From the sequence record OZ035817.1: DNA of 44,766 nucleotides. One strand, given 5' to 3'. How positions within the stretch are numbered: position 1 is the stretch's first letter; every line of letters starts with the position of its first letter. This DNA comes from Vectrevirus DIJ06P1. Below are positions 30 through 44,608 of the stretch, piece after piece. A model generated the notes under the pieces. It was given only the letters and a program-made list of their open reading frames with translations. It had not been told where the DNA came from and searched no databases. The translations under genes and the position numbers were made by a program.

Positions 30-329
30 GTGAGCGTACACAATAAACATGCAGCTACAGAGGATGAGGTTGGCATTCTGCATGGTGCTATTACCAAAAT
101 CTTCAATAAGAAAGCACAGGCAATACTGGACACTATAGAAGAAGACCCTGATGCAGCATTACATTTAGTGTCTGGTAAGGATATTGGTGCGATGTGTAAG
201 TGGGTTCTTGATAACGGCATTACCGCCACACCTGCTGCACAGCAGGAAGAGTCCAAGTTATCTAAGCGCCTCAAGGCTATCCGAGAGGCATCCAGTGGCA
301 AGATTATTCAGTTTACAAAAGAGGAGTGA
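30..329 (+). CDS. putative terminase small subunit (DNA maturase A)
   Basis: 99-aa ORF with GTG start just downstream of GGAGGGAG; lies immediately upstream of the large terminase as T7 gene 18 does. Positional call only, no motif recognised. Confidence 0.4.
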   Translation: MSVHNKHAATEDEVGILHGAITKIFNKKAQAILDTIEEDPDAALHLVSGKDIGAMCKWVLDNGITATPAAQQEESKLSKRLKAIREASSGKIIQFTKEE

Positions 330-330
330 T

Positions 331-774
331 ATGCATAGATGGTGTGAATCTCAAGGTTATACCATCTTACCTTCTGGTGTCATCCTTTCAAAGGGTGGCA
401 CCCCTCTCAAACCATTCAAGGCGGGTAGGGGTTATTTAGCAGTTAAAATTAAAAATAAAGAAGGTAAATGGCGTAATGTCTATGTTCATCAATTAGTGGC
501 TTATAAGTATTTACCTAAAACTAATAATGAAGTAAACCACAAAGACGGCGATAAGCACAACAATGATGTTAGCAACTTGGAGTGGGTAACAAGAAGCGAG
601 AATAACTATTTAAAATGCAATGGAAATGATAGGAGTGCCTTAAATAGCTATTTAGCAAGATTAAAAGATTGCTTCTTGCAAGGTAAGGGTGTAGCAGAAA
701 CCGCTAGACTTACTGGTAAAAGTGAACCAAGAGTTTCTTCTCTCTTTAAGGAGTGGCGAAATGGCAAAGGCTAG
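331..774 (+). CDS. free-standing HNH homing endonuclease
   Basis: ATG at 331 preceded by GAGGAG; HNH core VNHKDGDKHNNDVSNLEWVTRSEN; AT-rich relative to flanks; 3' end overlaps the terminase start by 14 nt. The six-frame ORF 184..774 is an upstream extension of this frame. Confidence 0.7.
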   Translation: MHRWCESQGYTILPSGVILSKGGTPLKPFKAGRGYLAVKIKNKEGKWRNVYVHQLVAYKYLPKTNNEVNHKDGDKHNNDVSNLEWVTRSENNYLKCNGNDRSALNSYLARLKDCFLQGKGVAETARLTGKSEPRVSSLFKEWRNGKG

Positions 775-4333: not shown

Positions 4334-4356
4334 ATTTACTGGACACTATAGAAGAG
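4334..4356 (+). promoter_or_regulatory. SP6-type phage RNAP promoter
   Basis: ATTTACTGGACACTATAGAAGAGG about 80 nt upstream of tailspike 1. Confidence 0.75.
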
Positions 4357-4435: not shown

Positions 4436-6334
4436 ATGGCTAAATTAACCAAACCTAATACTGAAGGAATCTTGCATAAAGGACAATCTTTGTATGAGTA
4501 CCTTGATGCGAGAGTTTTAACATCAAAGCCGTTTGGTGCTGTAGGTGACGCCACTACTGATGATACGGAGGTTATAGCTGCTTCATTAAACTCTCAGAAA
4601 GCTGTCACAATCTCAGACGGTGTATTCTCTAGCTCTGGTATTAATAGTAATTACTGTAACTTAGACGGTAGAGGTAGTGGGGTGCTAAGTCACCGTTCCA
4701 GTACAGGTAACTACTTAGTATTTAACAATCCACGTACAGGTCGCTTAAGTAATATTACGGTAGAAAGTAATAAGGCGACTGATACAACTCAGGGACAGCA
4801 GGTATCTCTTGCCGGTGGAAGTGATGTTACTGTAAGTGACGTTAACTTCTCAAACGTTAAAGGTACTGGTTTCAGTTTAATCGCATACCCTAATGATGCG
4901 CCACCTGATGGACTTATGATTAAAGGTATTCGAGGTAGCTATTCAGGCTATGCTACTAATAAGGCAGCTGGATGCGTACTTGCTGACTCCTCAGTTAACT
5001 CCCTCATAGATAACGTCATTGCTAAGAACTACCCTCAGTTCGGAGCAGTAGAGTTGAAAGGTACAGCCAGTTACAACATAGTCAGTAATGTTATAGGGGC
5101 AGATTGCCAGCATGTAACTTACAACGGCACTGAAGGGCCAATAGCTCCTTCTAATAACCTTATCAATGGGGTAGTGGCTAATAATCCTAAGTATGCAGCG
5201 GTTGTTGCAGGCAAAGGTAGTACGAACTTAATATCAGATGTGCTCGTAGATTACTCAACCTCTGATGCTAGGCAGGCTCATGGTGTTACAGTAGAGGGTT
5301 CTGATAACGTCATAAATAATGTGCTTATGTCAGGATGTGATGGTACTAACTCTTTAGGACAAGGGCAGACTGCTACAATTGCACGCTTTATAGGTACAGC
5401 TAATAACAACTATGCGTCTGTATTTCCTAGCTACAGTGCTACAGGTGTTATTACTTTCGAATCCGGCTCTACCCGTAACTTCGTAGAGGTAAAGCACCCT
5501 GGCAGGAGAAACGACCTTCTCAGTTCTGCTAGTACTATTGACGGTGCAGCTACTATTGACGGCACTAATAATAGTAACGTAGTGCACGCACCTGCCTTAG
5601 GGCAGTACATAGGTAGTATGTCAGGTAGGTTCGAATGGCGGATTAAGTCCATGTCACTCCCTTCAGGCGTTCTTACTTCTGCTGATAAGTACAGAATGCT
5701 TGGGGATGGTGCTGTATCATTAGCTTTAGGTGGGGGTACTTCTTCTCAAGTTCGCCTATTTACTTCTGATGGTACTTCTCGGACAGTGTCCCTCACCAAC
5801 GGTAACGTGCGTCTTTCTACCAGTAGCACAGGCTATTTGCAGTTAGGTGCTGATGCAATGACCCCAGACAGTACTGGTACATACGCATTAGGTTCCGCCA
5901 GCCGAGCATGGTCTGGCGGTTTTACTCAAGCAGCATTCACTGTTACCTCAGATGCTCGGTGTAAAACAGAACCTCTCACTATCTCAGATGCCTTACTGGA
6001 TGCTTGGTCTGAAGTTGACTTTGTGAAGTTTCAGTATTTGGATCGTGTTGAGGAGAAGGGTGCAGACTCAGCTAGATGGCACTTCGGTATCATCGCTCAG
6101 CGAGCTAAGGAGGCTTTCGAACGTCACGGTATAGATGCACATCGCTATGGCTTTTTGTGCTTCGACAGTTGGGATGATGTATACGAGGAAGATGCAGATG
6201 GCTCTCGTAAACTGATTACACCAGCAGGTTCCCGCTACGGTATTCGTTACGAGGAAGTGCTGATATTAGAGGCTGCGTTGATGCGGAGGACTATTAAGCG
6301 TATGCAGGAAGCACTAGCTTCCCTGCCTAAGTAA
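4436..6334 (+). CDS. tailspike 1, beta-helix with C-terminal intramolecular chaperone (S74-like) domain
   Basis: ATG at 4436 after GGAG; Gly/Ser/Thr/Asn-rich repeats typical of a right-handed beta-helix; C-terminus SDARCK...WHFGIIAQRAKEAF resembles auto-cleaving chaperone domains. The ORF-track start at 4376 is probably too early. Confidence 0.8.
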   Translation: MAKLTKPNTEGILHKGQSLYEYLDARVLTSKPFGAVGDATTDDTEVIAASLNSQKAVTISDGVFSSSGINSNYCNLDGRGSGVLSHRSSTGNYLVFNNPRTGRLSNITVESNKATDTTQGQQVSLAGGSDVTVSDVNFSNVKGTGFSLIAYPNDAPPDGLMIKGIRGSYSGYATNKAAGCVLADSSVNSLIDNVIAKNYPQFGAVELKGTASYNIVSNVIGADCQHVTYNGTEGPIAPSNNLINGVVANNPKYAAVVAGKGSTNLISDVLVDYSTSDARQAHGVTVEGSDNVINNVLMSGCDGTNSLGQGQTATIARFIGTANNNYASVFPSYSATGVITFESGSTRNFVEVKHPGRRNDLLSSASTIDGAATIDGTNNSNVVHAPALGQYIGSMSGRFEWRIKSMSLPSGVLTSADKYRMLGDGAVSLALGGGTSSQVRLFTSDGTSRTVSLTNGNVRLSTSSTGYLQLGADAMTPDSTGTYALGSASRAWSGGFTQAAFTVTSDARCKTEPLTISDALLDAWSEVDFVKFQYLDRVEEKGADSARWHFGIIAQRAKEAFERHGIDAHRYGFLCFDSWDDVYEEDADGSRKLITPAGSRYGIRYEEVLILEAALMRRTIKRMQEALASLPK

Positions 6335-6419
6335 GCAACAGGCAGTGCGTAAGCACTGCTTTTCACGCAACTTTTCTTAAAGGTTATCATGGTGGTAGCC
6401 TTTCAGAAAAGGAGGGTAC

Positions 6420-8471
6420 ATGCTACAAAGATTAGGGGCTTCCATGGTGAAGTTCAAGAGTAAACTCGCTGGTTCCATCGAACGTATACTCTCAGACAAG
6501 TTAATGGATACTGTAAGCGTTAAAGACTTTGGCGCTAAAGGAGATGGTATCACAGATGATACTGCTGCTTTCAAAGCAGCAATAACTTGTGGCGCATCTA
6601 GGGTATTAGTACCTGCAGGCAGGTATGTGATTACTGACACACTTTCTTTGCCATCTGGGGTCTGGTTATTTGGTGAAGGTGTTGACTATTGGGACACCTA
6701 TCGTCCAGACGAGGGTAGGCTTATTAAGTCATGGAGTAAAGGAACGCACCTTGTGTTCACTGGTAGTGGGTCTAAAAACAAGCAATTTCTTAATATCTCT
6801 AATGAACGCCCAACAAAGACAATAAATGGAGTAACTTGCTCTTTTACCGACTTCACTAATAGTGATGCACAAGTAACAGAACCTGCTACACCACGTAGTA
6901 TGAGTATTGCTGTATCAGTACAGGCAGGCAGTGGCTTACGCGATCTTCGTATTATGGTAAACAATGAAGGTATCTCTGGTTACAATGACTTTGTTTCTAC
7001 AAACAAGCTAGGTGACAACTGGGATATTGGGTTGCATGTATATGACAGCTCAGATGCTGTAATTGATAATGTGCAAGTTGTTGGCTATTGGAAGGTTGCA
7101 GGTACACTCTTAACGGAGAACGACGGCTCCATCACAATGCGTGGTAATCCAGAGAAGACACTATTTAATAAGTTCTACACTCAAGGTATCAGAGGTTTAC
7201 TTATTAGGAATAGCCCGCAAGTAGATGTAGTATCTCAAGAGTCAGCAACCAAGTTAACCATTAAAGCGAATGCTACTTCCCGTATATTAGCACAAAATGG
7301 TTTTCGAGTAGCAGGTAGTACTACGATACATAGATGGACTAGTGTTACAAGACAAGGAGACACTTATGTATTAGATGGCATCACACCTGAGTTACCTTCT
7401 GCTTCTGGCCTCGGGGTTGTTCGTTTCCCATCTATGGGTAACAATTGGTCTGGTACAGTGTTCAACAATACTGTTGCTGTGTCCTTTGAGCACTCATCCG
7501 GTAGAACCTCAAGACAACTAGGACTTCCTGTATCTTTTGCTATGGAGATTGATGGCTTCCCTTGTCGTAACCTCAAATTCATAAACTTCAAGGCACAGAC
7601 TTCTTACGATGAAGGAAATACATTGTTTGGTGATATGCGCGATGCCAAGTTTGTGGCTAGCGAGTTCGAGAATGGTAGGCTGATTGCGTATGATTTGTCT
7701 CAGACTCAAGGGTATACTGGTAATATGCGGTCTGCTGTGTCTGACATGCAGTTTCATTCCACTAATATTGAAGGCTTCACACCACGTGATTTCTTCTATG
7801 ACCTAGGACATTTTCCTACTTCTTATACTGATGGTTCTTTTATCATGAAGCATTGGCGAGAAAAGGATTTACAGGTACAATGGTATAATGGTAAAGCATT
7901 CATCCATCTACATGAAGATGATGGCCGTGTAACACTTACCAGTAAAGGCGGTCTAGATTTGTATAACTTTAGTTCTACAAAAGACGTGACGTTCAAGGGT
8001 CGCAACTTTGTATTCAAAAACGATGCAAGTGAAGACGTATTGAAGTGGTTTGGCGGTTCAGGGAATATCTCTACGAAAGGAAACATCTCGCCTATGGTAG
8101 ATGGGGTTGCCTCTCTGGGTACAAATTCCTATCGCTGGGGCGCAGTGCATTCAGTAAATGGGACGTTACAAACCTCTGACGGTAGGCTAAAGGAGATCCA
8201 CGATATTAAACAAGAAGAACTTGATGCGGGGATTGCATTATCAGCAAGTCTAATCAAGTATCGTTGGTATGGAGAAGAAAAGTTCCACTTTGGTTGTATT
8301 GCCCAAGAGGTAATGTTAATCATGGAGAAACATAATCTAGACCCATTACAGTATGGAATGGTGCAGTATGATGAAGAGGCAGACATCTTTAGTGTAAACT
8401 ATGCTGAATTGAACAGCTTCTGCATCGCAGCTCTGTCTAGGAGGTTGAATGCCATTAATCAAATCAGTTAA
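6420..8471 (+). CDS. tailspike 2, pectate-lyase-like beta-helix with C-terminal intramolecular chaperone domain
   Basis: ATG after AAAGGAGGG; VKDFGAKGDGITDDTAAFKAAI is a pectate-lyase-superfamily N-terminal motif; C-terminus SDGRLK...FHFGCIAQEV parallels tailspike 1. Confidence 0.8.
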   Translation: MLQRLGASMVKFKSKLAGSIERILSDKLMDTVSVKDFGAKGDGITDDTAAFKAAITCGASRVLVPAGRYVITDTLSLPSGVWLFGEGVDYWDTYRPDEGRLIKSWSKGTHLVFTGSGSKNKQFLNISNERPTKTINGVTCSFTDFTNSDAQVTEPATPRSMSIAVSVQAGSGLRDLRIMVNNEGISGYNDFVSTNKLGDNWDIGLHVYDSSDAVIDNVQVVGYWKVAGTLLTENDGSITMRGNPEKTLFNKFYTQGIRGLLIRNSPQVDVVSQESATKLTIKANATSRILAQNGFRVAGSTTIHRWTSVTRQGDTYVLDGITPELPSASGLGVVRFPSMGNNWSGTVFNNTVAVSFEHSSGRTSRQLGLPVSFAMEIDGFPCRNLKFINFKAQTSYDEGNTLFGDMRDAKFVASEFENGRLIAYDLSQTQGYTGNMRSAVSDMQFHSTNIEGFTPRDFFYDLGHFPTSYTDGSFIMKHWREKDLQVQWYNGKAFIHLHEDDGRVTLTSKGGLDLYNFSSTKDVTFKGRNFVFKNDASEDVLKWFGGSGNISTKGNISPMVDGVASLGTNSYRWGAVHSVNGTLQTSDGRLKEIHDIKQEELDAGIALSASLIKYRWYGEEKFHFGCIAQEVMLIMEKHNLDPLQYGMVQYDEEADIFSVNYAELNSFCIAALSRRLNAINQIS

Positions 8472-8667
8472 GCAAAGTGCTGTACGCCAGAACACAGAAG
8501 AGCTTATTCAATCAGGACGTGACCCTAAGCAAGCCTATGCGATTGCCAAGGTATACAACGTCGTGCTATGAAGAAACTTTCTGCATCTTCTGCGTAAGCA
8601 GGTTAATATCTTAGTATAAACAAGGGCAGACTTAGGTTTGTCCTTAGTGTATTCCAAAGGAGGTAAC

Positions 8668-8796: not shown

Positions 8797-9461
8797 CCAA
8801 AGTCAAAATTTTGATGTAGGCGTGTGTCAGCTCTCTCGCCCTCGCCCTCGCCGGGTTGCCCCCATAGGGTGGCCTGAGGGAATCCGTCGAAGACGGGTAG
8901 GGCTGATGTACTCCTTCGCTAGTACAAGGGAGGCGGGGAATGCCTAGGAAGCGCTAGGGCACGCCTTAGTATTGGACAAGGTGATTGCCTTAGTGAAGCC
9001 TCTTAGTACATTCCTGAGGCCATTCAGGGCGTTTATGAGGCATTGACAGGGTGGATGGGTGTGGGCTATCTGTTCGTTTCGCTACGCTTCACTCACTGCT
9101 CCTCACTTCGTTCGTCGCTGCGGTAGCCTGATGTGTACCTTAGGTTATTACTTGATGGATAGCTTAGGTTATAGCTTAGTGACCTACCTTAGTTATAACC
9201 TTAGTGCATAGCTTAGTATCAGCTTAGTAGTGTACCTTAGTAAGTCTTAGTGTCTTCTCTTAGTGATTGCACATGCAAGCATGTAAGATGCCATTAGGTC
9301 GCGGTCGGTAGACCGCTAAAGAAGGAGAGTAGTAATAAGATGCAGTAGGAGGAACACCAGAAGCCTCGCCAACCTAGCCTATCCTAGCTCTGTATCTATT
9401 GCTTTTCCTTAGTCTCACATGATAGACAACCTATCTTATTCCTAGTGATGATAACTTAGTG

Positions 9462-32197: not shown

Positions 32198-33409
32198 ATG
32201 TCTACACCGAATACTCTGACTAACGTTGCTGTATCTGCATCCGGTGAGGTTGACAGCCTTCTCATTGAGAAGTTTAATGGTAAGGTCAATGAGCAGTACC
32301 TGAAAGGTGAGAACATTCTGTCCTACTTTGATGTACAAACTGTTACTGGCACTAACACAGTGAGCAACAAATATTTGGGCGAAACTGAGTTGCAGGTGCT
32401 AGCACCGGGTCAGTCTCCTAATGCCACCCCTACTCAGGCAGATAAAAACCAGTTGGTAATTGATACCACTGTCATTGCTCGTAACACTGTGGCTCACATC
32501 CACGATGTACAAGGTGACATCGATAGCCTGAAACCAAAACTGGCTATGAACCAAGCCAAGCAACTGAAACGTCTGGAAGACCAGATGGCAATTCAGCAGA
32601 TGCTGTTAGGCGGTATTGCTAACACCAAGGCCAAACGTAACAAGCCGCGTGTTAAAGGGCATGGCTTCTCTATCAACGTTAACGTAACTGAGAGTGAAGC
32701 ACTGGCTAACCCTCAGTATGTTATGGCTGCGGTAGAGTATGCTCTGGAGCAACAGCTTGAGCAGGAAGTGGACATCTCTGATGTAGCTATCATGATGCCG
32801 TGGAAGTTCTTCAATGCTCTGCGTGATGCAGACCGAATTGTAGATAAGACTTACACTATCAGCCAGTCTGGTGCAACCATTAATGGCTTCGTTCTCTCTT
32901 CTTATAACTGCCCTGTGATCCCGTCTAACCGATTCCCTACCTTCGCTCAGAATCAGGCTCACCACCTGTTGTCTAATGAAGATAACGGCTATCGTTATGA
33001 CCCTATCGCAGAGATGAATGGTGCAGTTGCTGTTCTGTTCACTGCCGACGCACTGCTGGTGGGTCGTACCATTGAAGTGACTGGTGACATCTTCTATGAG
33101 AAGAAAGAGAAGACTTATTACATTGACACCTTCATGGCTGAGGGTGCAATCCCTGACCGTTGGGAAGCAGTGTCTGTAGTTACCACTAAACGTAATGCAA
33201 CTACTGGTGTTGCTGAAGGTTCTGGTGGTGATGATCACGCAACCGTACTGGCTCGTGCACAGCGTAAGGCTGTATATGTCAAAACCGAAGGTGCTGCGGC
33301 TGCATTCTCTGCTGCCCCAGCAGGTATCCAAGCGGAAGACCTTGTAGCGGCGGTACGTGCTGTAATGGCAAATGACATCAAGCCGACTGCAATGAAACCT
33401 GCTGAGTAA
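32198..33409 (+). CDS. major capsid protein
   Basis: 403 aa; own promoter upstream and terminator downstream; position between scaffold and tail tube genes. Confidence 0.85.
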   Translation: MSTPNTLTNVAVSASGEVDSLLIEKFNGKVNEQYLKGENILSYFDVQTVTGTNTVSNKYLGETELQVLAPGQSPNATPTQADKNQLVIDTTVIARNTVAHIHDVQGDIDSLKPKLAMNQAKQLKRLEDQMAIQQMLLGGIANTKAKRNKPRVKGHGFSINVNVTESEALANPQYVMAAVEYALEQQLEQEVDISDVAIMMPWKFFNALRDADRIVDKTYTISQSGATINGFVLSSYNCPVIPSNRFPTFAQNQAHHLLSNEDNGYRYDPIAEMNGAVAVLFTADALLVGRTIEVTGDIFYEKKEKTYYIDTFMAEGAIPDRWEAVSVVTTKRNATTGVAEGSGGDDHATVLARAQRKAVYVKTEGAAAAFSAAPAGIQAEDLVAAVRAVMANDIKPTAMKPAE

Positions 33410-40337: not shown

Positions 40338-43300
40338 ATGGAACAAGACATTAAGACTAATTGGGCTGGATATGTCCAGTCTACTCCTGAGCCGTTTTCT
40401 ATTGAGGCGGCTCCGGTATCGGCTCCTACGATACGCCAGCGTAATGAGTTACAAGAGCAAGTTCTTGAAGCTAAAGCTGATGCTGATATCTTAGGTGCTG
40501 TAGGTGCTGCCTTCCAGAATGAGTGGTTGGCATTCGGAGGCAAGCGGTGGTATGACCGTGCCACTGCTGATTTCACACCTCAACCAGACTTCGAGATACA
40601 ACCTGAGCAACGTGAAGCACTACGTTTCAAATATGGTACAGATATGATGCAGACAATCACTGAGGGTGTTCGTTCTGAGGATGAATTGAACTTCCGTATT
40701 CAGAATGCTGATGAAGACCTTGAGCGCAATAAGCGCATTGCTCAGGCTGGCTGGGTTGGCTCTGTGGCGACGATTGGCGCTGCTGTGCTTGACCCTGTGG
40801 GATGGGTTGCCTCTATTCCAACCGGTGGTGCCGCTAAAGTTGGACTCGTAGGCCGTGCTGTGCGTGGCGCTATCGCCGCTGGCGTAAGTAATGCCGCTAT
40901 TGAATCCGTATTGGTCCAAGGTGACATGACTCGTGATTTAGATGACATTATGGTAGCACTAGGCTCCGGTATGGCTATGGGTGGCGTTATTGGAGCTGTA
41001 GCGCGTGGTAAGGCCACTAAGCTCAGTGAGCAAGGAGATGACAGGGCTGCGAGCATTGTGCGCAGTGCAGACGCAGGGGACCGCTATGTGCGTGCTGTTG
41101 CTGATGATAGTATCGGTGCGATGCGTGTTAAGGGTGAAGAGGTACTCACTGAGGGTGCATTTGATATCTCTAGCAAAGGTGAAGATTTGCTGAAAACCCT
41201 ACAGCGGGAAGGTAATGCAATTGATATGACCCCTCGCCGCTGGGCCGGAACTCTGTCTGCCCTTGGTACTGTCGTACATTCCTCTCAGGATGCAAGTGTA
41301 CGCGGCCTTGGTGCTCGCCTGTTTGAGTCCCCCCAAGGCTTAGGTATGCAGAAGGCATCTGCTAGTCTCATGCAGAATACTAACTTGAACCGTCTGAAAT
41401 CTGCTGATATGAATCGTTTCAACGATGGGTTCGATTTATGGCTCAAAGAGAATAATATCAACCCGGTTGCAGGTCATACTAACTCTCACTATGTGCAGCA
41501 ATATAATGAGAAGGTATGGGAAGCTGTACGCATCGGTATGGACGAGTCTACGCCTAAGTCTATCCGTATGGCAGCAGAGGGGCAGCAAGCTATGTATCGT
41601 GAAGCATTAGCATTACGTCAACGCTCTGGTGAAGCTGGGTTTGAAAAGGTTAAAGCAGATGATAAGTACATGCCTGATATTTTTGACAGTATGAAGGCTC
41701 GTCGTCAATTCAGTATGCACGATAAAGAGGACATCATTGAGTTATTCTCTCGTGCATACCAGAATGGTTCTCGTAAGGTTCCAAAGGAAGTGGCTGATGA
41801 TATTGCACGAGCACAAGTAAACCGCGTTGCTGATGCCACCTTGACCGGACAGCTTAGCTTTGAAAAGGCTATGTCTGGTCAAACCAAAGCAGAATATGAA
41901 GCACTCATGCGCAAAGCAGGCTTTAGTGATGAAGAGATTGAAAAGATGGTAGAAGCTCTGGATAATAAAGAAACTAGAGATAATATCTCTAACCGAGCTA
42001 AGATGAGTTTAGGCTTAGATGTTACTCAAGAGTACAATGGTATTCGTATGCGTGACTTTATGAACACTAACGTGGAAGAGTTAACAGATAACTACATGAA
42101 GGAAGCGGCAGGTGGTGCTGCCTTGGCTCGTCAAGGTTTCTCTACCTATCAGGCTGCACTTAATGCAATTGATCTTGTAGAGCGAAATGCACGAAATGCA
42201 GCTAAAGATACAAAAGCACACGCACAATTTGAAGCGGAGTCGGCTAAGATCCGTCAATCAGAGCCTGATTACAAGAAGGCACAAGAGAAGATTGAAGAGT
42301 TAAAGAAGCGACTTAAATTGAAAGAGAAAGATGAAGCAGCAGGTCTGGCTATTGATGAAGAAATCCGTCAGATGCGAGAGGGGCTTCGCTTGATTATGGG
42401 TAAATCTATCGATTCAAACCCACAAGATTTGTCTACTAAAATGCTGCGTCGTGGGCGTGACATTACAGGTGTACTTCGCTTAGGTCAGATGGGCTTCGCA
42501 CAGCTAGGTGAACTTGCTAACTTCATGGGTGAGTTTGGTATTGCTGCCACCACTATGGCTTTAGGTAAGCAATTCCGCTTCACCTCTAAGGCGTTGCGTA
42601 ATGGCGATGGCTTCTTTCGAGATAAGAATTTAGCTGAGGTTGAGCGAATGGTAGGTTACATTGGTGAAGACAACTGGCTGACAACTAAGGGTGCGCGTCC
42701 CGATGAGTTTGGTGATGTAACCACAGTGCGAGGTATGATGGCCCATTTTGACCAGTCCATGAACTCTATACGACGTGCTCAGACAAACCTATCCCTCTTC
42801 CGCATGGCACAGGGTTCTCTGGAGCGAATGACCAATAGGCAAATAGCTTTGTCTTTCATTGACCACCTTGAAGGCAAGAAGATTATTCCTCAGAAGAAAC
42901 TGGAGGAACTTGGTCTTACTCAGGAGTTCATGACTAACCTACAGAAGCACTATGATGCTAACTCTAAAGGTTCTGGCTTGCTTGGCTTTGATACAATGCC
43001 TTATGCCATGGGTGAAACTTTAGCTAATGCTATTCGTCGTAAGTCAGGTCTAATTATCCAACGTAACTTCATTGGTGATGAAGGTATCTGGATGAACAAA
43101 GCACTAGGTAAGACATTTGCACAGCTTAAGTCATTCTCTCTTGTATCTGGTGAGAAGCAATTTGGTCGAGGGATTCGCCACGATAAAATTGGTCTTGCTA
43201 AGAAGACAGCTTATGGTTTTGCTTTGGGTTCAATAGTGTATGCGGCAAAAGCCTATGTGAACTCTATTGGTCGAGAAGATCAAGATGAATATTTGGAAGA

Positions 43301-43646
43301 GAAGTTATCGCCTAAAGGGTTGGCCTTTGGTGCAATGGGTATGATGAGTACAACTGCTGTATTTAGTCTAGGTGGAGATTTCTTAGGTGGCCTAGGTGTT
43401 CTACCTTCTGAGTTAGTACAATCCCGTTATGAGGCTGGCTTTCAGACTAAGGGTTTGATAGACCAAATACCACTAGTAGGTGTTGGTCAAGATGCATATC
43501 GTTTAGCAGATTCTATAACTAAATACGCAGAGGGTGATACAGAAGGTGTAGATGTGGCACGTAGGGCTTTACGCTTAGTGCCTCTAGCTAATGTAATAGG
43601 AATCCAGAACGCATTGCGTTATGGCTTAGATGAACTGGAGGATTAA
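40338..43646 (+). CDS. internal core protein (gp16-like)
   Basis: 1102-aa ORF last in the internal-protein series before the tail adaptor. Confidence 0.8.
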   Translation: MEQDIKTNWAGYVQSTPEPFSIEAAPVSAPTIRQRNELQEQVLEAKADADILGAVGAAFQNEWLAFGGKRWYDRATADFTPQPDFEIQPEQREALRFKYGTDMMQTITEGVRSEDELNFRIQNADEDLERNKRIAQAGWVGSVATIGAAVLDPVGWVASIPTGGAAKVGLVGRAVRGAIAAGVSNAAIESVLVQGDMTRDLDDIMVALGSGMAMGGVIGAVARGKATKLSEQGDDRAASIVRSADAGDRYVRAVADDSIGAMRVKGEEVLTEGAFDISSKGEDLLKTLQREGNAIDMTPRRWAGTLSALGTVVHSSQDASVRGLGARLFESPQGLGMQKASASLMQNTNLNRLKSADMNRFNDGFDLWLKENNINPVAGHTNSHYVQQYNEKVWEAVRIGMDESTPKSIRMAAEGQQAMYREALALRQRSGEAGFEKVKADDKYMPDIFDSMKARRQFSMHDKEDIIELFSRAYQNGSRKVPKEVADDIARAQVNRVADATLTGQLSFEKAMSGQTKAEYEALMRKAGFSDEEIEKMVEALDNKETRDNISNRAKMSLGLDVTQEYNGIRMRDFMNTNVEELTDNYMKEAAGGAALARQGFSTYQAALNAIDLVERNARNAAKDTKAHAQFEAESAKIRQSEPDYKKAQEKIEELKKRLKLKEKDEAAGLAIDEEIRQMREGLRLIMGKSIDSNPQDLSTKMLRRGRDITGVLRLGQMGFAQLGELANFMGEFGIAATTMALGKQFRFTSKALRNGDGFFRDKNLAEVERMVGYIGEDNWLTTKGARPDEFGDVTTVRGMMAHFDQSMNSIRRAQTNLSLFRMAQGSLERMTNRQIALSFIDHLEGKKIIPQKKLEELGLTQEFMTNLQKHYDANSKGSGLLGFDTMPYAMGETLANAIRRKSGLIIQRNFIGDEGIWMNKALGKTFAQLKSFSLVSGEKQFGRGIRHDKIGLAKKTAYGFALGSIVYAAKAYVNSIGREDQDEYLEEKLSPKGLAFGAMGMMSTTAVFSLGGDFLGGLGVLPSELVQSRYEAGFQTKGLIDQIPLVGVGQDAYRLADSITKYAEGDTEGVDVARRALRLVPLANVIGIQNALRYGLDELED

Positions 43647-44608
43647 TGAGTTATACTTTCACAGAACATATAGCCAACGGTACGCAAGTAACCTATCCCT
43701 TTAGCTTTGCTGGTAGGGATAAAGGTTATCTTCGTGCCTCAGATGTGATAGTGGAGTCTCTTCAAGGTAACACTTGGATTGAGGTTACATCTGGCTGGCA
43801 ACTAACTGGCACGCACCAGATTACTTTTGATGTAGCACCAGTTGCAGGTTTGAAGTTCCGTATTAGAAGGGAAGTACAAAAGGAGTATCCATACGCTGAG
43901 TTTGACCGTGGTGTTACCTTGGATATGAAGTCTTTAAATGGTTCTTTCATTCATATACTGGAGATTACACAGGAGTTACTTGACGGGTTTTATCCAGAAG
44001 GATACTTCATTAAACAGGATGTAAGCTGGGGCGGCAATAAGATTACTGATTTGGCTGATGGCACAAATCCTGGAGATGCAGTAAATAAAGGGCAGCTTGA
44101 TGCCATCGACAAGAAGCATACAGATTGGAACGCCAAACAGGACATTGAGATTGCTGGCCTTAAGGCTGGTATGACTTCTGGTATTGCGCACAGAACTGTT
44201 CCTTGGTACACGATAGCCCAAGGTGGTGAGATTTCCGTAAAACCACCTTATGAATTTCAAGATGCACTAGTTTTCCTTAATGGGGTGTTGCAGCACCAAA
44301 TTGTAGGCGCATACTCTATAAGCAACAACACTATCACTTTCGCAGAGCCGCTTGTGGCTGGTACAGAGGTGTATGTGCTGATTGGTAGTCGTGTGGCTAC
44401 ATCTGAACCTAATATTCAGTTAGAGTTGAACTTTGACTTAGTAGAAGGCCAACAAGTAGTACAGATTGGCTCTGCATTTAAGTACATTGAGGTCTACCTT
44501 GATGGATTATTACAACCTAAACTTGCTTATCAGGTAGACGGTGACATTGTTACTTTCTCAGAGGGAGTGCCAGAATGCCGGATGACTGCTAAGATTATCA
44601 CAGCATAA
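43646..44608 (+). CDS. tail fiber adaptor protein (gp17 N-terminal-domain-like)
   Basis: 320 aa; ATG overlaps the upstream stop; short protein suited to docking the separately encoded tailspikes. Confidence 0.7.
   Translation: MSYTFTEHIANGTQVTYPFSFAGRDKGYLRASDVIVESLQGNTWIEVTSGWQLTGTHQITFDVAPVAGLKFRIRREVQKEYPYAEFDRGVTLDMKSLNGSFIHILEITQELLDGFYPEGYFIKQDVSWGGNKITDLADGTNPGDAVNKGQLDAIDKKHTDWNAKQDIEIAGLKAGMTSGIAHRTVPWYTIAQGGEISVKPPYEFQDALVFLNGVLQHQIVGAYSISNNTITFAEPLVAGTEVYVLIGSRVATSEPNIQLELNFDLVEGQQVVQIGSAFKYIEVYLDGLLQPKLAYQVDGDIVTFSEGVPECRMTAKIITA

Follow-up and report, generated by a model that had tools for sequence, protein, structure and literature searches.

The 44,766-nucleotide stretch of Vectrevirus DIJ06P1 DNA in sequence record OZ035817.1, which we analysed over its whole length and refer to as the window, carries the genes of two tailspikes, spike 1 and spike 2, together with that of a separate adaptor. 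It is highly probable that this region represents the receptor-recognition module of a K1-5-like Vectrevirus, with a two-spike assembly, spikes that are processed by chaperone domains, and an exchanged cassette in the second spike position (slot 2). By blastn the window is collinear with the complete K1-5 genome at a mean DNA identity of 95% across 41.8 kb, and the sole large replacement relative to K1-5 (6550..8445) lies within the spike 2 gene. The initial annotation of this DNA had likened its two tailspikes to those of K1-5-type phages, and the collinearity, the DNA identity and the separate gp37-type adaptor all agree with that comparison. The two spike genes lie side by side in the interval that it had given (4436-8471). 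It had also expected two glycan specificities as in K1-5-type phages; here the two-spike system stands, but the pairing would be K5 plus another glycan rather than K5 plus K1.

The two tailspikes and the slot-2 cassette

On its sequence, spike 1 (632 amino acids) is the known K5 capsule (heparosan) lyase, an enzyme that has already been crystallised. It is identical to K1-5 gp46, annotated as 'K5 lyase', at 620 of 632 positions, and its residues 1-505 share ~98% identity with KflA of coliphage K5A (PDB 2X3H, 'K5 lyase'; phmmer E=0, 1071 bits), from which it differs by few substitutions and with which it shares the same terminal serine. Residues 31-631 match 9VVR (phmmer E=0), and the full length matches PHROG 14895 (tail spike). 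The window gene also encodes a chaperone domain of 128 residues that the 2X3H crystal does not contain. The start given for this gene in the list of open reading frames is TTG 4376, whereas the ATG at 4436 agrees with the starts of both K1-5 gp46 and 2X3H. Judging from the near-identity to a characterised enzyme, spike 1 would be a beta-helix enzyme that cleaves the K5 heparosan capsule of Escherichia coli by beta-elimination. A copy of the SP6/K1-5-type phage RNA polymerase promoter, ATTTACTGGACACTATAGAAGAG, lies 80 nucleotides upstream of the gene; with up to three mismatches allowed, seven copies of the promoter consensus occur in the window, all on the + strand, with 0 expected in shuffles.

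It is in slot 2 that the window departs from K1-5. Homology detected by blastn stops at window position 6549, at ~codon 44 of spike 2, and resumes at 8446, at the overlapping start of gp48. As read from this alignment, the left boundary of the cassette is the 85-nucleotide hairpin spacer between the spikes together with the first ~43 codons of spike 2, and its right boundary is the last ~25 nucleotides of the gene, which contain the gp48 start. The spacer is nearly identical to the gp46-gp47 spacer of K1-5, likewise of 85 nucleotides, and its predicted RNA fold has an energy of -37.9 kcal/mol (z = -7.0), with 0 of 200 shuffles folding as well. UUUU comes after its first hairpin (6342..6359), and the second stops directly ahead of the spike 2 ribosome-binding site. 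A canonical intrinsic terminator was considered for the spacer and rejected: the scan flagged the hairpin at 6342..6359 only, and no more than four U follow this hairpin on the + strand. Possible roles of the element would be those of a terminator, a processing site or a recombination hotspot, but we call it simply a structured spacer and assign it none of them. As the comparison with K1-5 shows, the slot-2 gene has evidently been exchanged as a cassette between two conserved boundaries, its own chaperone domain included.

Three independent metagenomic Vectrevirus contigs of ~44.6 kb carry the spike 2 module at 99% identity (P0001), with the K5 lyase upstream and gp48 downstream, and phage NTNC80A has it at 94% identity over amino acids 412-683; the NTNC80A record begins inside the gene and does not include its first 411 codons. 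At 87% identity the module is fused to a P22-type head-binding domain (P0003), and relatives at 45-54% identity carry PF18668, PF03906, PF12571 or PF09008 N-termini. Across the relatives of spike 2, the stalk and the chaperone diverge faster than the beta-helix core. Many Vectrevirus records share the slot-1 K5 lyase at 90% or more, yet their coverage of a query with both spike genes is just 53-60%, which identifies slot 2 as the variable position. Receptor-binding protein genes have been described as variability hotspots in Vectrevirus (bioRxiv 10.1101/2023.11.22.567924).

The gp48 homologue downstream of the cassette is frameshifted by a one-base deletion near 8552 relative to K1-5, to NTNC80A and to the three 99%-identical metagenome contigs, the gene being intact in NTNC80A and these contigs. 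The deletion leads to a product of 40 rather than 49 amino acids with an altered C-terminus, and could reflect either a genuine mutation or an error in sequencing.

Fold and relatives of spike 2

Spike 2 (683 amino acids) occupies the slot that holds the endosialidase in K1-5. Pfam assigns its residues 32-222 to the pectate-lyase-like family PF12708, and the protein has the right-handed parallel beta-helix of the tailspike depolymerases of the pectate-lyase superfamily. An AlphaFold2 monomer prediction on 48 aligned relatives reached a mean predicted local distance difference test (pLDDT) score of 86.4, and displays a long beta-rich body at ~32-470, a further beta domain at ~480-555, a low-confidence linker at 560-585 and a small C-terminal alpha/beta domain with a closing 22-residue helix at 661-682. 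A beta-helix followed by a chaperone-like C-terminus had been described for both spikes in the initial annotation, and this was borne out by the near-identity of spike 1 to 2X3H, by the spike 2 model and by the Pfam S74 matches. In the structure prediction and comparison which it had recommended, the top neighbours of the spike 2 model are mostly enzymes, including tailspike depolymerases.

Four acidic residues of spike 2 (D202, E376, D408 and E417) are invariant in the alignment of 48 sequences and three more (D199, E233 and D397) nearly so, and R263 is invariant as well. D202, E233 and R263 follow one another at a spacing of ~30 residues beside successive strands of the model, a pattern that would be expected of a row on one face of the beta-helix.

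We rejected the possibility that spike 2 is a K1 endosialidase, even a diverged one: it is without PF12217, PF12218 and PF12219, and only PF12708 and PF13884 matched. In a global alignment with K1-5 gp47, the 188 identities over 910 columns all fall in two parts of the protein, its N-terminal anchor and its chaperone domain. The slot-2 protein of K1-5 is a beta-propeller endosialidase, whereas that of the window is a beta-helix spike of the pectate-lyase fold. K1 strains are probably not hosts of the window phage, because the stretch 6550..8445 has no DNA homology to K1-5 and the endosialidase has been replaced.

For spike 2, searches of phage records, proteins and structures gave no homologue whose substrate is known or whose active site has been mapped. 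No characterised relative was found by tblastn against 50,697 phage records, where the best full-length match was a 'head binding protein' of phage SD2 (52%); a search of 5.8 billion proteins returned only generic names, and BFVD no informative ones. Among 5,426 complete E. coli genomes, blastn found only prophage tailspikes with ~67-68% DNA identity over less than 50% of the spike 2 query, and these are too distant for any host-serotype specificity to be transferred to spike 2. In the literature searched, NTNC80A turned up only in a taxonomy summary and an RNA polymerase paper, neither of which deals with host range. The fold of spike 2 is shown and its activity inferred: distinct from spike 1, it would be another right-handed beta-helix enzyme within the pectate-lyase superfamily. 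Its target is most likely a further surface polysaccharide of E. coli, O-antigen or capsule, which it would bind and cleave, and through which the phage would gain a second range of hosts instead of K1 strains.

Chaperone domains, adaptor and genome context

Both spikes end in a domain that matches the Pfam family PF13884 (Peptidase_S74, 'chaperone of endosialidase') above its gathering cut-off of 22 bits, at residues 505-565 in spike 1 (E 3.8e-14, 53.2 bits) and at residues 586-639 in spike 2 (E 5.6e-06, 27.0 bits), and the two C-termini are 30% identical (E 1e-08). The motifs to which the initial annotation had drawn attention are there, SDARCK from residue 505 in spike 1 and SDGRLK from residue 586 in spike 2. 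The shared block that it had written as (H/F)FG(I/C)IAQ is also there, as HFGIIAQ at 549 in spike 1 and HFGCIAQ at 623 in spike 2, but its '(H/F)' does not hold, both copies reading HFG after W or F. The two proteins have a Ser-x4-Lys dyad (S505-DARC-K510 and S586-DGRL-K591) and an upstream arginine, R490 at 15 residues before S505 (LGSASRAW) and R572 at 14 residues before S586 (LGTNSYRW). In spike 2, S586, D587 and K591 reach 90% conservation or more over the 48 sequences, and TSD...K is nearly invariant across 47 relatives. The corresponding residues in characterised proteins are the S911/K916 dyad and R897 of endoNF and S1264/K1269 and R1250 of T5 pb1 (PMC8326128; PMC4690869), the arginines being matched to R490 and R572 by sequence position only. 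In these proteins an arginine of the neighbouring chain, ~14 residues upstream, makes cleavage conditional on correct folding of the trimer (PMC8326128; PMC4690869). K5 lyases are among the four protein families in which the chaperone domain was first described (PMC8326128).

Residues 505-632 of spike 1 match the solved chaperone domains 3GUD (3.8e-22), 3GW6 (1.1e-19) and 4UW8 (5.9e-10), and align through to the end of the first two, while the chaperone of spike 2 matches Kp7 gp51 (7Y5S; C-terminal stretch, 7.2e-13) and T5 pb1 (4UW8; 7.9e-10). A C-terminal helix is present in both, at 661-682 in the model of spike 2 and, for spike 1, by alignment to the ends of 3GUD and 3GW6. The dyad, the upstream arginine and the terminal helix are thereby held in common with the S74 domains of MEROPS (endoNF of K1F, 3GW6; GA-1 neck appendage, 3GUD; T5 pb1, 4UW8; Kp7 gp51, 7Y5S), compared with which the 98-residue version of spike 2 is minimal. 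The deposited chain of 2X3H ends exactly at S505, with FTVTS as its last residues and DARCK missing, the serine being included; this is indirect evidence of self-cleavage, and for spike 1 alone. In T5 pb1, the scissile bond is on the N-terminal side of the serine, which departs with the chaperone (PMC4690869). In view of this difference we place cleavage at S505 and S586 without fixing the side.

Each spike would accordingly first be synthesised as a precursor whose C-terminus is an intramolecular chaperone. Conserved residues and homology to solved domains suggest that this chaperone assembles into a trimer by means of its terminal helix, and that the intertwined stalk before it starts to fold from there. 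In a correctly formed trimer, the arginine of a neighbouring chain (R490 or R572) would then aid the Ser-Lys dyad, the chain would be cut at the serine, and release of the chaperone would leave a kinetically stable mature spike.

A related short chaperone was observed in Escherichia phage vB_EcoP-CC2 (L007 2592..4115), which apparently has a single spike, of 507 amino acids, with a hybrid N-terminus formed by MAKLT, of the slot-1 type, and then slot-2-type sequence. The chaperone of this spike shares 54% identity with that of spike 2, and the middle of the protein is unrelated to it; the chaperone domain is thus somewhat mosaic itself.

The separate adaptor gene that had been placed at 43646 was confirmed. 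Its product of 320 amino acids is identical to K1-5 gp37 at 317 positions, matches the T7 tail-fibre N-terminal domain (Pfam PF03906) with residues 3-153 and falls in PHROG 2710 (E 3.8e-148); it is thus a short protein of its own, with a T7 gp17-like N-terminus and without a receptor-binding domain. In K1-5, gp46 binds the middle of gp37 via the heptapeptide MAKLTKP, and gp47 binds its C-terminal part via the undecapeptide MIQRLGSSLVK (PMC6872550, citing Leiman et al. 2007). Both anchors have counterparts in the window (Table 1), and that of slot 2 is also conserved in KMB14; spike 2 is similar to gp47 and to the slot-2 spike of KMB14 as far as VSVKDFGAKGDG, the start of the beta-helix. The strong difference between the N-terminal parts of the spikes had been read as a sign of swappable receptor modules. 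Modules are indeed swappable, but they lie downstream of ~codon 44 and include the chaperone. The N-termini are conserved slot-specific anchors, and since these are conserved across the genus, the difference between them reflects the two slots and not the variability of a swappable part. By homology, the trimeric adaptor would sit on the tail via its T7 gp17-like N-terminus and offer two docking sites, one taken by spike 1 through MAKLTKP and the other by spike 2 through MLQRLGASMVK, and each virion would carry six copies of each trimeric spike.

Table 1. Positions of the tailspike module and associated elements in the window
Feature	Position	Strand	Basis
SP6/K1-5-type phage RNA polymerase promoter	4334..4356	+	perfect consensus copy
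Spike 1, K5 capsule (heparosan) lyase tailspike, orthologue of K1-5 gp46 / KflA	4436..6334	+	homology
Slot-1 anchor heptapeptide MAKLTKP, predicted to bind adaptor middle	4436..4456	+	identical to N-terminus of K1-5 gp46
Spike 1 C-terminal intramolecular chaperone / putative self-cleaving domain, S505 to K632 (128 amino acids)	5948..6334	+	PF13884
Spacer of 85 nucleotides between the spikes: two strong hairpins, then spike 2 ribosome-binding site	6335..6419	+	conserved with K1-5
Spike 2, tailspike in K1-5 endosialidase slot	6420..8471	+	PF12708 and PF13884
Slot-2 anchor undecapeptide MLQRLGASMVK, predicted to bind C-terminal part of adaptor	6420..6452	+	8/11 to K1-5 gp47 MIQRLGSSLVK
Spike 2 right-handed parallel beta-helix (~amino acids 32-470), presumed glycan-binding and glycan-cutting domain	6513..7829	+	
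Exchanged cassette without DNA homology to K1-5 (spike 2 codons ~44-675)	6550..8445	+	blastn
Spike 2 C-terminal intramolecular chaperone domain, S586 to S683 (98 amino acids), terminal helix 661-682	8175..8471	+	PF13884
gp48 homologue, start overlapping last 23 nucleotides of spike 2	8449..8571	+	homology to K1-5
Adaptor joining both spikes to the tail, orthologue of K1-5 gp37	43646..44608	+	homology

The right end of K1-5 (44385) aligns up to window position 9068 and its left end (base 1) from window position 8836. Accordingly, the window is a complete genome in circularly permuted form, in which a direct terminal repeat of ~233 bp (8836..9068) is present once. By this mapping no other large gene follows the two spike genes before the physical right end, which is also the case in K1-5, and their earlier description as "end-of-genome" spikes is correct. 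The closest database records all belong to Vectrevirus (Autographiviridae, Molineuxvirinae).

Two further departures from K1-5 were observed elsewhere in the window. A gene for an HNH homing endonuclease of 148 amino acids (328..774, + strand; Pfam HNH_3, E 2.6e-11; PHROG 59, E 9.3e-30) sits in an insertion of ~430 bp (331..760) that is absent from K1-5 and separates the gp39 homologue from the large terminase gene. The homologue of gp36, an internal virion protein (40338..43646, + strand), has 1102 amino acids versus 1061 in K1-5, and a break in the blastn alignment at window 42210..42343 (K1-5 32934..32944) suggests an insertion of ~120 nucleotides.

Alternative readings and relation to known phages

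None of the findings conflicts with the reading given above, but several observations weigh against its account of spike 2 as a self-cleaving depolymerase. Its catalytic activity would be deduced only from the conserved acidic residues D202, E376, D408 and E417; the relatives found include none of known substrate, the best hits in the phage database being unannotated or generically named; the stalk at amino acids 560-585, before the cleavage site, has a pLDDT below 50 in the monomer model; and the chaperone is truncated in comparison with those of its relatives (98 versus 101-205 amino acids) and exceeds the Pfam cut-off by only 5 bits. The structural neighbours, moreover, comprise hydrolases and lyases (also epimerases) and one non-enzymatic adhesin, PfbA, so that the chemistry of spike 2 cannot be read from its fold. 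Spike 2 might thus be a glycan-binding adhesin without enzymatic activity, the beta-helix of which holds the phage on the surface polysaccharide and leaves the K5 lyase as the sole depolymerase. We regard this as distinctly unlikely, as most of the top structure neighbours are enzymes (tailspike depolymerases, epimerase/lyases and glycosidases), D199, D202, E233, E376, D408 and E417 are invariant or nearly so over 48 sequences at 28-99% identity, and no part of the family is better conserved than the beta-helix core. The conserved acidic residues and the conservation of the core suggest that spike 2 retains an active site.

A second alternative accepts spike 2 as a depolymerase and concerns the fate of its chaperone, which might aid folding and then stay uncleaved on the mature spike. 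The domain is the shortest among those of 47 aligned relatives, apart from P0058, which is without it; compared with spike 1, far less sequence lies between the HFGxIAQ block and the terminal helix, and the long beta-hairpin segment of the spike 1 domain is absent; and the Pfam score is barely past the cut-off (27.0 versus 22). The short domain and the near-cut-off score make efficient self-cleavage less certain for spike 2 than for spike 1. Nevertheless, S586, K591 and R572, that is, all residues implicated in cleavage, are there at the right spacing, and a comparably short domain has been kept in the spike of Vectrevirus CC2 (54% identity) and in the P22-type fusion (81%), so that we consider a permanently attached chaperone unlikely and favour cleavage of both spikes. 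It is very improbable, finally, that only one of the spikes is functional or incorporated, as in K1E-type phages, which have a vestigial protein in one slot. Nothing specific to the window speaks for this reading. Here the two genes run intact over their full length and have good ribosome-binding sites, the anchor peptide of each spike is conserved, the adaptor with its two docking regions shares 99% identity with its K1-5 counterpart, and the pair of spike genes recurs in independent contigs at 99% protein identity.

The closest known system is that of K1-5 (Vectrevirus K15), in which gp37 is the adaptor, gp46 the K5 lyase and gp47 the K1 endosialidase, and with which the window has the genus, the gene order, the spacer and the gp48 overlap in common. 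The two-spike design is also that of Salmonella phage SP6, whose gp46 and gp47 are carried on a gp37-type adaptor through conserved hepta- and undecapeptide anchors (PMC6872550). SP6 differs in its host genus and its receptor-binding modules, and the likeness is drawn from the published description (PMC6872550) and not from a sequence comparison.

The two-spike architecture, the chaperone mechanism and the modularity of the cassettes have all been published before, and with an ordinary arrangement of a textbook system the current understanding is unchanged. The window nevertheless offers a clean natural exchange of slot 2 in a K1-5 chassis with defined recombination boundaries, which makes it a useful template for the engineering of host range, as tailspike cassettes decide which E. 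coli strains a therapeutic phage kills and the spikes also serve as anti-capsule enzymes. We tentatively propose, as a possibility that may well not hold, that spike 2 depolymerises an O-antigen or a capsule type of E. coli against which no characterised phage enzyme exists, that it folds with a minimal chaperone of 98 residues, and that it belongs to a portable cassette circulating between lytic Vectreviruses and P22-type phages. If this were true, the chaperone of spike 2 would define the smallest functional self-cleaving S74 module, and its very short form could help to define the minimal needs of chaperone-assisted trimer folding.

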